Sequence record: NC_055780.1
Length of the DNA: 64,000 nt
Source: Escherichia phage MLF4
Reading direction: 5' to 3' (one strand)
Shown here one piece after another: positions 24,241 to 25,181 of this stretch; the stretch's first letter is position 1; the number at the start of each line of letters is the position of its first letter. Below the pieces are notes generated by a model, which had not been told where the DNA came from, searched no databases, and saw only the letters and a list, made by a program, of their open reading frames with translations. Both the position numbers and the translations under genes were made by a program.

Positions 24241-24327
24241 GCGAGAATGGTCAAATTGGTAAAGGCACAGCACTTAAAATGCTGCGGAATTATTTCCTTG
24301 TGGGTTCGAGTCCCACTTCTCGCACCA
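24241..24327 (+). tRNA. tRNA-Leu (anticodon TAA), class II
   Basis: Acceptor GCGAGAA/TTCTCGC, anticodon loop CTTAAAA, long variable arm, T-arm GTGGG-TTCGAGT-CCCAC, CCA encoded. Confidence 0.9.
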
Positions 24328-24332
24328 AATTT

Positions 24333-24406
24333 GCGGATATCGTATAATGGCATTACCTCAGACTTCCAATCTGATGATGTGAGTTCGATTCTCATTATCC
24401 GCTCCA
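24333..24406 (+). tRNA. tRNA-Gly (anticodon TCC)
   Basis: Acceptor GCGGATA/TATCCGC, anticodon loop CTTCCAA, T-loop TTCGATT, CCA encoded. Confidence 0.9.
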
Positions 24407-24416
24407 ATTTAATTTA

Positions 24417-24490
24417 CTCCGTGTAGCTCAGTTTGGTAGAGCGCCTGATTTGGGATCAGGAGGTCCAAGGTTCAAATCCTTGTATGGAGA
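24417..24490 (+). tRNA. tRNA-Pro (anticodon TGG), CCA not encoded
   Basis: Anticodon stem-loop CCTGA-TTTGGGA-TCAGG; T-arm CAAGG-TTCAAAT-CCTTG; acceptor with two G-U pairs. Confidence 0.85.
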
Positions 24491-24492
24491 CT

Positions 24493-24582
24493 GGAGGCGT
24501 GGCAGAGTGGTTGAATGCACCGGTCTTGAAAACCGGCAGTCGCTCCGGCGACTCATAGGTTCGAATCCTATCGCCTCCGCCA
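24493..24582 (+). tRNA. tRNA-Ser (anticodon TGA), class II
   Basis: Acceptor GGAGGCG/CGCCTCC, anticodon loop CTTGAAA, long variable arm, CCA encoded. Confidence 0.9.
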
Positions 24583-24587
24583 GTTTT

Positions 24588-24663
24588 GCTGATTTAGCTC
24601 AGTAGGTAGAGCACCTCACTTGTAATGAGGATGTCGGCGGTTCGATTCCGTCAATCAGCACCA
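24588..24663 (+). tRNA. tRNA-Thr (anticodon TGT)
   Basis: Acceptor GCTGATT/AATCAGC, anticodon loop CTTGTAA, T-loop TTCGATT, CCA encoded. Confidence 0.9.
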
Positions 24664-24664
24664 A

Positions 24665-24739
24665 GGCCCTGTAGCTGGAAGGTTCAAGCAAGCGACTCAT
24701 AATCGCCAGATGGTGGTTCAATTCCACCCAGGGCCACCA
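24665..24739 (+). tRNA. tRNA with anticodon CAT (Ile via lysidine, as in T4, or Met)
   Basis: Acceptor GGCCCTG/CAGGGCC, anticodon loop CTCATAA, T-arm GGTGG-TTCAATT-CCACC, CCA encoded. Confidence 0.8.
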
Positions 24740-24745
24740 AATTAA

Positions 24746-24832
24746 GGGGAGTTATCCCGTAGAGGTAGCGGTGTGGACTGTAAATTCATTGTCATTGCGA
24801 CTCGGGTGGTTCGACTCCATCACTCCCCACCA
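24746..24832 (+). tRNA. tRNA-Tyr (anticodon GTA), class II
   Basis: Acceptor GGGGAGT/ACTCCCC, anticodon loop CTGTAAA, long variable arm with GTC/GAC stem, T-arm GGTGG-TTCGACT-CCATC, CCA encoded. Confidence 0.75.
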
Positions 24833-24836
24833 ATTT

Positions 24837-24911
24837 GGATGTGTAGCTCAATGGCAGAGCGATCGCCTGTTAAGCGATTGGTTATAGGTTCGAATCCTAT
24901 CACGTCCGCCA
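24837..24911 (+). tRNA. tRNA-Asn (anticodon GTT)
   Basis: Acceptor GGATGTG/CACGTCC, D-arm TAGCTCAATGGCAGAGC, anticodon stem-loop ATCGC-CTGTTAA-GCGAT, T-loop TTCGAAT, CCA encoded. Confidence 0.8.
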
Positions 24912-25025
24912 AATTTGTGACAACTGTCACATTAATATCTACTTGACGCGATTATAGGGGTTGAACTGATCACTCTTCTCTTAATTTCGTGTGAAGACAT
25001 CATGATTGTTGGAGTAGGTATTAAT

Positions 25026-25101
25026 GTGGCCGTAGTTCAGTTGGTAGAACTCGAGATTGTGATTCTCGTAGTCATGGGTTCGACTCCCATCGGTCACCCC
25101 A
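25026..25101 (+). tRNA. tRNA-His (anticodon GTG)
   Basis: Acceptor GTGGCCG/CGGTCAC, anticodon stem-loop CGAGA-TTGTGAT-TCTCG, T-loop TTCGACT, CCA encoded. Confidence 0.8.
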
Positions 25102-25105
25102 ATTA

Positions 25106-25181
25106 CGGGGCATAGCTCAGAAGGAAGAGCAAGGACCTTCTAAGTCCTGGGTCGTAGGTTCGATCCCTACTGCCTCGACCA
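25106..25181 (+). tRNA. tRNA-Arg (anticodon TCT)
   Basis: Acceptor CGGGGCA/TGCCTCG, anticodon stem-loop AGGAC-CTTCTAA-GTCCT, T-loop TTCGATC, CCA encoded. Confidence 0.85.

Follow-up and report, generated by a model that had tools for sequence, protein, structure and literature searches.

The tRNA operon of Escherichia phage MLF4 is probably a T2/RB-type Tequatrovirus cluster with a gene content set by mobile cassettes

We analyzed the transfer RNA (tRNA) gene cluster in a stretch of 64,000 nucleotides (nt) from Escherichia phage MLF4 (NC_055780.1); this whole stretch is called the window below. Very probably, the cluster is an ordinary T2/RB-type Tequatrovirus tRNA operon whose content has been set by mobile cassettes, and its tRNAs serve as extra decoders, with tRNA-Tyr serving also in counter-defence. 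Gene identities, junctions, distribution and codon statistics were computed here. The homing of SegB and the effect of tRNA-Tyr against the Septu defence system are taken from the literature on near-identical genes; homing by the HNH gene of the window and any benefit to this phage are inferred.

Exactly 10 tRNA genes were found by ARAGORN in the entire 64-kb window, all on the + strand at 24241-25181, and no further tRNA was found (Table 1). The same ten genes, with the same anticodons and coordinates, had been folded in an earlier reading of the sequence without database searches (hereafter, the sequence-only reading). The T4 set quoted there for comparison agrees with the annotation of NC_000866, and its statement that tRNA-Gln is absent holds in the sense that this gene is reduced to its first 7 nt. 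Nine of the tRNA genes passed the RF00005 gathering score of 29 in Rfam, at 59-75 bits. The block of Leu, Gly, Pro, Ser and Thr (24241-24663) is common to T4 and 98.8-100% identical to it. The best E. coli matches of the CAT tRNA were genes annotated as tRNA-Ile (81.6%); it is therefore of the Ile2 type, a reader of AUA, as in T4. The tRNA-Pro gene is the only one of the ten without a 3′ CCA and therefore depends on the host CCA-adding enzyme. The tRNA-Ser gene encodes CCAG, unlike that of T4, and T2L was reported to be alike in this (PMC2330249).

For Tyr, Asn and His, the three tRNAs that the sequence-only reading had singled out as additions to the T4 set, the tools agreed except in one case: ARAGORN called all three, while Rfam accepted Asn and His and failed Tyr. 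The tRNA-Tyr gene was below the RF00005 threshold so that no RF00005 match was kept, and its best match in the Rfam clan was tRNA-Sec, at 29.9 bits versus a threshold of 47. In the ARAGORN fold, it is a class II tRNA: its variable arm is long, and one pair of the D-stem is mismatched. It was 100% identical to the annotated tRNA-Tyr of T2, 98.9% (86/87) to that of T6, 84% to that of T5 and 67% to that of E. coli. Its sole difference from T6 changes a G-C pair in the T-stem to G-U, and T5 tRNA-Tyr has exactly the same variable arm. The record of phage ACG-C40 lists a tRNAscan-SE score of 39.13 for its tRNA-Tyr. The T6 tRNA-Tyr was seen by northern blot and is functional (PMC13096335). The 86/87 identity to this expressed tRNA supports a function for the tRNA-Tyr of the window despite its failure in Rfam. 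When used alone, tRNA-Tyr also matched unrelated phage groups, with 94.6% identity to records of ~136-139 kb, such as Escherichia phage navn, and 85-93% identity to records of ~108-110 kb, such as SE11 and fp01. These matches suggest a phage-specific tRNA-Tyr lineage that would have been traded between phage families.

The window region was 97.7% identical to Escherichia phage vB_EcoM_ACG-C40 (NC_019399, Tequatrovirus), the record of which annotates the identical ten tRNAs with an "HNH endonuclease" ahead of them. A 1.6-kb query of the cluster matched at least 1107 phage records, at least 232 of them at ≥80% query coverage; these counts, like the others given here, come from BLAST summaries of a phage collection and are lower bounds. 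Alignments with T4, T2, R5505 and ACG-C40 showed the order of a T2-type operon lacking segB, that is, trna.2, the tRNAs, ORF116 (ORF, open reading frame), rnaD, rnaC and a terminator, with Ile, Tyr, Asn and Arg of the T2 type. There was no seg-like gene in the Ile-Arg interval among the ORFs listed; the interval consists of tRNAs and a spacer before tRNA-His, here called the pre-His spacer. The corresponding region of the T2L/RB1/RB3 type (PMC2330249) likewise lies between trna.2 and rnaD/rnaC and has T2-type Ile(CAT), Tyr, Asn and Arg and ORF116 without segB, and such a cluster is annotated also in ACG-C40, the slur phages, the BASEL phages and others. T2 itself differs from the window in lacking tRNA-Thr and the His module (pre-His RNA and tRNA-His), all of which the window has, in having an additional ORF that separates Ser from Ile, and in retaining Gln, which the window has lost to the HNH gene.

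Comparison of gene orders among close relatives revealed two replacements in this operon. R5505 carries 11 tRNAs in matching order, with tRNA-Gln before Leu and without the HNH gene. In T4, the order is Gln-Leu-Gly-Pro-Ser-Thr-Ile, followed by segB, a gene of the GIY-YIG family, and then by Arg, rnaD and rnaC. T6 has Gln-Leu-Gly-Thr-Met(CAT)-Tyr-segB-Arg, and T2 has Gln-Leu-Gly-Pro-Ser-ORF-Met(CAT)-Tyr-Asn-Arg-ORF. JEP6 (MT764206) and T4_ev151 (LR597660) each have both endonuclease genes, HNH and segB, in their tRNA operon, which keeps 7 tRNAs. All four module combinations were thus found, with 11 tRNAs in R5505, 10 in the window, 8 in T4 and 7 in JEP6 and T4_ev151. The HNH and segB replacements are therefore independent, as both cassettes occur together in the last two phages. 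The Tyr-Asn-spacer-His block was found in at least 185 records, segB (at ≥80% coverage) in at least 126, intact tRNA-Gln with its flanks in at least 448 and the HNH gene in at least 62.

The loss of tRNA-Gln could be explained by the junctions on both sides of the HNH gene. After the Gln remnant come 618 nt of unrelated DNA with the HNH ORF (ATG at 23626, stop at 24234), and homology to R5505 and T4 restarts two bases ahead of the nucleotide that separates Gln from Leu. The 7-nt remnant, the foreign DNA and the resumed homology mean that tRNA-Gln was overwritten, not that it was never acquired. What removed tRNA-Gln is the HNH gene and not a tuning of the tRNA repertoire.

The HNH protein matched phrog_14736 ("HNH endonuclease") over its full length at 412 bits, and nine more HNH PHROGs matched it. 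Its translation contains the HNH motif CAIC...HIDGNNKNH...N...CPNCH (CxxC...HxxxN...CxxCH). It is 35% identical to hegA of T5 (E=1.5e-19), which also sits in a tRNA cluster, and a tblastn search with it across the window returned the self-match only. Among the matches listed, 62 records carry the gene, all at ≥95% identity and at least 53 of them at ≥99%. In the carriers, as in Lv5cm, a query with intact tRNA-Gln was matched by its upstream flank only. The gene was 99.0-99.3% identical to three other carriers, and the flanks were 94.7-98.5% identical. Presence or absence of the HNH gene is thus polymorphic at one locus among close relatives, and we infer from these sequences a free-standing homing endonuclease that has been spreading recently. 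Like SegB, it may be more than selfish.

The Gln remnant lies 6 nt upstream of the HNH start, and its GGGA could be a candidate Shine-Dalgarno sequence. At the other end, 6 nt separate the HNH stop codon from tRNA-Leu in all carriers examined (ACG-C40, JEP6 and T4_ev151), so that RNase P, in processing the tRNA-Leu 5′ end, would cleave the mRNA immediately behind the ORF. A comparable arrangement has been proposed for segB and tRNA-Arg (PMC2330249). SegB of T4 and T6 (GIY-YIG) and the HNH genes hegA, hegC and hegD of T5 resemble the gene of the window in that an intact ORF lies inside a tRNA operon, is patchy among close phages and has displaced tRNAs. The gene of the window differs from SegB in belonging to the HNH family, not the GIY-YIG family, and in its insertion point within tRNA-Gln.

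The second replacement concerns segB. Collinearity between T4 and the window runs past Thr to ~12 nt into the CAT tRNA, and from there to rnaD the two sequences are unrelated. T4 fills this interval with an Ile body and a tRNA-Arg of its own and, between them, segB; in the window, it holds another Ile body, Tyr, Asn, the 114-nt spacer, His, another tRNA-Arg and ORF116. The outgroup Tevenvirinae genera Jiaodavirus, Karamvirus and Gelderlandvirus also have Tyr, Asn or His tRNAs, and the cluster bearing Tyr, Asn and His is commoner than the segB type (at least 185-232 versus at least 126 records). T2L, RB1 and RB3 lack segB, and T2L has tRNA-Met, Tyr, Asn and Arg with two ORFs instead (Brok-Volchanskaya et al. 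2008, PMC2330249). The same work showed that SegB prefers the 3′ end of T2L tRNA-Asn as its cut site and drives the replacement of a ~1250-bp (base-pair) region of T2L in crosses, erasing its extra tRNAs, and concluded that T4 acquired segB recently (PMC2330249). The tRNA-Asn of the window carries the preferred SegB site sequence (GGTTCGAATCC ... CCAA), and the core T-arm motif of SegB, GGTTCRANTCC, is present in 8 of the 10 tRNA genes. From the block frequency, the tRNAs of the outgroups and the SegB results of 2008, we conclude that textbook T4 is the reduced state; the fuller set has been known since 2008. The window had been described in the sequence-only reading as expanded relative to T4. 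The direction is the reverse, as the Tyr/Asn/His type is the commoner one and occurs in outgroups, and T4 has the segB cassette in its place.

For codon usage, we compared 92 heuristically called ORFs of the window (18,652 codons) with 62 annotated MG1655 genes, of which 35 are typical and 27 highly expressed. Tyr was the most over-represented amino acid (4.69% versus 2.59%, 1.81-fold), followed by Lys (1.66-fold) and Asn (6.08% versus 3.74%, 1.62-fold). Late genes contained 7.1% Asn, 4.9% Tyr and 1.05% His. The largest absolute codon excess was that of AAT (46.1 versus 13.6 per thousand), and TAT stood at 36.9 versus 14.2. When ranked by phage/host ratio, the leading codons were AGA, ATA, GGA, TCA, ACA, AAT, ACT, TTA, TCT, CCT and TAT. 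Eight of these 11 are directly cognate to phage tRNAs; the exceptions, ACT, TCT and CCT, are readable by the U34 tRNAs for Thr, Ser and Pro if U34 is modified as in E. coli. For all the tRNAs but His (9/10), the phage over-uses the cognate codon, by 2.6- to 9.6-fold in eight cases (Tyr, Asn, Leu, Gly, Ser, Thr, Ile2 and Arg) and weakly in that of Pro (CCA, 1.41). His itself is under-used (1.67% versus 2.60%, 0.64-fold), with CAT at 1.04-fold (13.1 versus 12.6 per thousand) and CAC at 0.27-fold. CAA is 1.7-fold enriched in the phage, yet tRNA-Gln was lost. Demand thus accounts well for Tyr and Asn, which need no counter-defence to explain them, and does not account for His.

Several defence systems are known to act on these tRNAs. 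In infections by T6, the Septu system EcB88 (PtuAB) attacks tRNA-Tyr by cutting its variable arm, infection is restored when T6 tRNA-Tyr is over-expressed or amplified, and a T6 mutant without the tRNA-rich region shows greater Septu sensitivity (Chihara et al. 2026, PMC13096335). T4 lacks a tRNA-Tyr gene and cannot escape Septu, and T2 is resistant (PMC13096335). Retron-Eco7, which also contains PtuAB, is neutralised by tRNA-Tyr of T5 and SP15 (Azam et al. 2024, PMC11555353). The targets of AriB of the PARIS system include tRNA-Asn(GUU) (PMC12409363). The idea of phage tRNAs as replacements for cleaved host tRNAs, with colicin E5 listed among the nucleases, was put forward by van den Berg 2023 (PMC10264068). 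No anti-phage nuclease against tRNA-His was found in a full-text literature search.

With 86/87 identical nucleotides, the tRNA-Tyr of the window is equivalent in sequence to the validated anti-defence tRNA of T6 (PMC13096335), and it shares its variable arm with the T5 tRNA-Tyr that neutralises retron-Eco7 (PMC11555353). T6 differs from the window in the tandem amplification of tRNA-Tyr and segB. By analogy with these near-identical genes, tRNA-Tyr would have both demand and a proven defence role behind it; tRNA-Asn has demand and a plausible defence role, and tRNA-His has neither. The suggestion in the sequence-only reading that tRNA-Tyr is a reported nuclease target is borne out by the Septu and retron-Eco7 papers (PMC13096335, PMC11555353). 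Its wider claim, that the composition of the cluster reflects counter-defence, stands for Tyr, where it had already been published for the T6 and T5 genes, is plausible for Asn and is unsupported for His.

The element before tRNA-His is a separate matter. The spacer between Asn and His (24912-25025, 114 nt) folds at -32.7 kcal/mol (z=-3.71 versus shuffles) and contains a structured RNA of ~93 nt, the pre-His element. Homologues were found in at least 354 phage records (Escherichia, Klebsiella, Enterobacter, Shigella, Salmonella and others), and no annotated feature covers the element in any record listed. In each of the four genera examined, tRNA-His always follows it directly; upstream of it, Jiaodavirus, Karamvirus and Gelderlandvirus have tRNA-Gln in place of Asn. 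Eight sequences from the four genera gave a consensus of a 14-bp closing stem with two internal hairpins. Of the cells of this alignment, 98.2% were paired, versus 36-55% when the partners were slid by 1-3 columns. Five pairs were altered on both sides, and covariation was 0.232 versus 0.138±0.017, above all 500 shuffles; with 8 sequences and an effective number of 1.3, this support is moderate. Many pairs were G-U, and the structure was therefore placed on the tRNA strand. Loop-loop pairing within the element amounted to 4-5 bp in most sequences, no better than in shuffles, and reached 7 bp in CF-SP2 only. Scanning for a sigma-70 promoter on the tRNA strand of the Asn-His spacer found none.

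The closing stem of the element reaches to position -2 of tRNA-His. In bacteria, HisRS and RNase P as a rule depend on a G(-1):C73 pair that the gene encodes, and E. coli hisR does encode this G. The T at -1 found in 8/8 phages is therefore unusual, and C73 is kept. The tRNA-His of the window is 79% identical to E. coli hisR. The tRNA-His of T5 is also annotated with T at -1, and it is directly preceded by the stable RNA RNAIII.

T5 RNAIII (106 nt) resembles the pre-His element in its long closing stem, its internal hairpins and its position adjoining tRNA-His. The alignment of the two by MAFFT was unconvincing, and a covariance model of the element matched nothing in the tRNA region of T5 at E up to 10, so homology was rejected. 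An identity as a known RNA or a degenerate tRNA was rejected as well: there was no Rfam match even at E up to 10 and no ARAGORN call. Species 1 and 2 of T4 (rnaC and rnaD) and T5 RNAIII are stable small RNAs co-transcribed with phage tRNAs, whereas the pre-His element is known here from its sequence; similarity to rnaC or rnaD was not detected by sequence or covariance model. The element looks like an undescribed member of the stable or processed RNAs of phage tRNA operons. Tentatively, tRNA-His may be kept not for decoding but because it travels with a functional pre-His RNA in a two-part module, a T4-like counterpart of RNAIII-tRNA-His of T5. The RNA might be a processing device that sets the U(-1) 5′ end or, alternatively, a stable RNA acting as a decoy or regulator.

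Between tRNA-Asn and the element, a short hairpin (24916-24931) has a perfect 6-bp stem (GTGACA-ACTG-TGTCAC region) and adjoins the preferred SegB target in tRNA-Asn. It was unaligned in Jiaodavirus and Roth01, and in Karamvirus and CF-SP2 the alignment covered its 3′ half (CTGTCAC) alone. The hairpin could signal processing or pausing.

The remaining features fit a T4-like operon (Table 1). In T4, a middle promoter lies just upstream of the tRNA cluster and transcription ends after species I RNA (PMC2330249); by analogy, the conserved leader of the window presumably has promoter activity. ORF116 is present in T2, R5505, ACG-C40 and JEP6 and not in T4. The rnaD and rnaC homologues matched no Rfam family. 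Just upstream of the operon, ORF173 (23005-23526, + strand; phrog_2290) is a presence/absence module: the window and R5505 have it, an ORF of equal size occupies the site in T2, and ACG-C40, JEP6, T4_ev151 and T4 lack it. Neither ORF116 nor ORF173 matched a Pfam family, and the PHROGs families of both are of unknown function.

Table 1. Features of the tRNA operon of phage MLF4 and its surroundings, in window coordinates
Feature	Position	Strand	Basis and remarks
Conserved leader	23527-23612	+	95.6-97.8% identical to ACG-C40, JEP6, T4_ev151, R5505 and T4
tRNA-Gln remnant, TGGGAAT	23613-23619	+	Equals first 7 nt of T4 tRNA-Gln; homology to T4/R5505 stops here
Free-standing HNH homing-endonuclease gene (putative), 202 aa (amino acids)	23626-24234	+	PHROG match; replaces nt 8 to ~71 of tRNA-Gln
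tRNA-Leu(taa)	24241-24327	+	ARAGORN, Rfam
tRNA-Gly(tcc)	24333-24406	+	ARAGORN, Rfam
tRNA-Pro(tgg)	24417-24491	+	ARAGORN, Rfam
tRNA-Ser(tga)	24493-24582	+	ARAGORN, Rfam
tRNA-Thr(tgt)	24588-24663	+	ARAGORN, Rfam
tRNA-Ile2 (CAT)	24665-24739	+	ARAGORN, Rfam; T2-type body, diverges from T4 after first ~12 nt
tRNA-Tyr(gta), class II	24746-24832	+	ARAGORN; identity to T2/T6/T5
tRNA-Asn(gtt)	24837-24911	+	ARAGORN; Rfam 74 bits; 100% identical to T2 tRNA-Asn
Short hairpin, GTGACAACTGTCAC	24916-24931	+	Minimum free energy fold; just after tRNA-Asn
Pre-His element, ~93-nt structured RNA (predicted)	24932-25024	+	Fold, conservation, covariation; ends 1 nt before tRNA-His
tRNA-His(gtg)	25026-25101	+	ARAGORN; Rfam 65 bits; C73, T at -1
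tRNA-Arg(tct), T2-type	25106-25181	+	ARAGORN, Rfam; sequence not homologous to T4 tRNA-Arg
ORF116	25200-25550	+	phrog_3355, function unknown; non-T4 cassette
rnaD (species 2) homologue	~25550-25666	+	89% identical to T4 feature
rnaC (species 1) homologue	25673-25811	+	97.8% identical to T4 feature
Intrinsic-terminator-like hairpin	25862-25885	+	Terminator scan: 10-bp stem, then T run; conserved with T4

In the history that we propose, leader, tRNAs, rnaD with rnaC and terminator would form one polycistronic unit, the fullest cluster of which would have 11 tRNAs (Gln-Leu-Gly-Pro-Ser-Thr-Ile-Tyr-Asn-[pre-His RNA]-His-Arg). Overwriting of Gln by the HNH gene would have left the 10 of the window phage. 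In T4, a cassette with T4-type Ile body, segB and T4-type Arg would have taken the place of Ile-Tyr-Asn-His-Arg-ORF116, leaving 8. The tRNAs would supply decoding for an AT-rich phage proteome rich in Tyr, Asn, Ile and Lys. tRNA-Tyr would in addition buffer the tRNA-Tyr pool against PtuAB-type nucleases, and tRNA-Asn may do likewise against PARIS-type nucleases.

Several points weigh against this account. The HNH protein, whose homing we presume, scored 17.3 bits with Pfam HNH (PF01844), under the cutoff of 21.4. The codon data set heuristic 64-kb ORF calls against 62 host genes, not whole genomes or measured tRNA pools, and tRNA-His misfits the demand model (His 0.64-fold; CAT 13.1 versus 12.6 per thousand). 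The T6 tRNA-Tyr is itself cut by Septu and acts by dosage after segB-driven amplification (PMC13096335). The window phage has no segB adjoining tRNA-Tyr, and the dosage route of T6 is therefore unavailable to it. The Septu resistance of T2 may depend on something other than its tRNA-Tyr.

Three other explanations were weighed. If all ten tRNAs were kept purely as translational supply for codon and amino-acid demand, with counter-defence incidental, one would expect what is seen: the phage tRNA set strikingly matches the codons that are most enriched in the phage, and by over-use Tyr ranks first and Asn third among the amino acids, with still higher values in late genes. It would not explain the keeping of tRNA-His for an amino acid that is under-used (0.64-fold overall, 1.05% in late genes) or the lack of an encoded tRNA-Lys when Lys is 1.66-fold over-used, and the T6 tRNA-Tyr does alter the outcome under Septu (PMC13096335). 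We regard supply as the whole explanation as rather unlikely. It is unlikely, too, that the tRNA content is a near-neutral by-product of homing traffic and T-arm recombination, a selfish hitch-hiking in which His and the lost Gln have little fitness effect. Viable close relatives do hold 7, 8, 9, 10 or 11 tRNAs, the region has been called non-essential for phage development (PMC2330249), the SegB T-arm motif recurs in 8/10 tRNA genes, and Gln was lost despite the 1.7-fold enrichment of CAA. However, the tRNAs show extreme sequence conservation between phages, with Asn and Tyr 100% identical to T2, versus 95.7-99.1% identity to relatives for the adjacent ORF116, the His module is conserved in four genera with compensatory changes, and T6 without the tRNA-rich region has a measurable phenotype (PMC13096335).

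The explanation favored in the sequence-only reading was that Tyr, Asn and His were gained as a set, chiefly for counter-defence, to replace GUN tRNAs destroyed by nucleases of the colicin E5 type. All three extra tRNAs do have a GUN anticodon, a fourth member of the GUN family, Asp(GUC), is found alongside them in a Jiaodavirus, colicin E5 is listed as a possible target by van den Berg 2023 (PMC10264068), tRNA-Tyr counter-defence is real in T6 and T5, and His is unexplained by demand. Nevertheless, the anticodon loops (32-38) of phage Tyr, Asn and His are the same as those of E. coli tyrT/V, asnT and hisR (CUGUAAA, CUGUUAA and UUGUGAU), so that a nuclease reading the loop would cut the phage copies too, and the anticodon-loop mutations of nuclease-evading tRNAs (van den Berg 2023) were not found in any of the three. 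Escape from colicin E5 through the anticodon loop was accordingly rejected as lacking sequence support. PtuAB, the demonstrated tRNA-Tyr nuclease, cuts the variable arm, which is unrelated to the queuosine family. The acquisition of the three genes as one unit was rejected as well, since Tyr is the only one of them in T6, T2 combines Tyr with Asn, and the His module is inserted or deleted separately. The NAY two-codon boxes need a G34 tRNA; GUN anticodons thus follow automatically once NAU-rich usage selects Tyr and Asn. With no anti-phage tRNA-His nuclease found in the literature, we consider the colicin E5 explanation very unlikely. A T2/RB-type operon shaped by mobile cassettes, with extra decoders and a tRNA-Tyr active also in counter-defence, is the reading we retain.

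The locus and the counter-defence idea are both already known: the tRNA set is annotated in hundreds of GenBank records and its T2L version was mapped in 2008, and the hypothesis that phage tRNAs act as replacements was published in 2023-2024 and demonstrated in 2026 for this tRNA-Tyr family. The pre-His RNA and the replacement of Gln by the HNH gene are modest details that are possibly new, and of all that is described here, only the pre-His RNA might open up new ground. The tRNA differences among T-even phages are set by cassettes that assort independently, and this matters wherever adaptive tRNA repertoires are inferred from gene lists.

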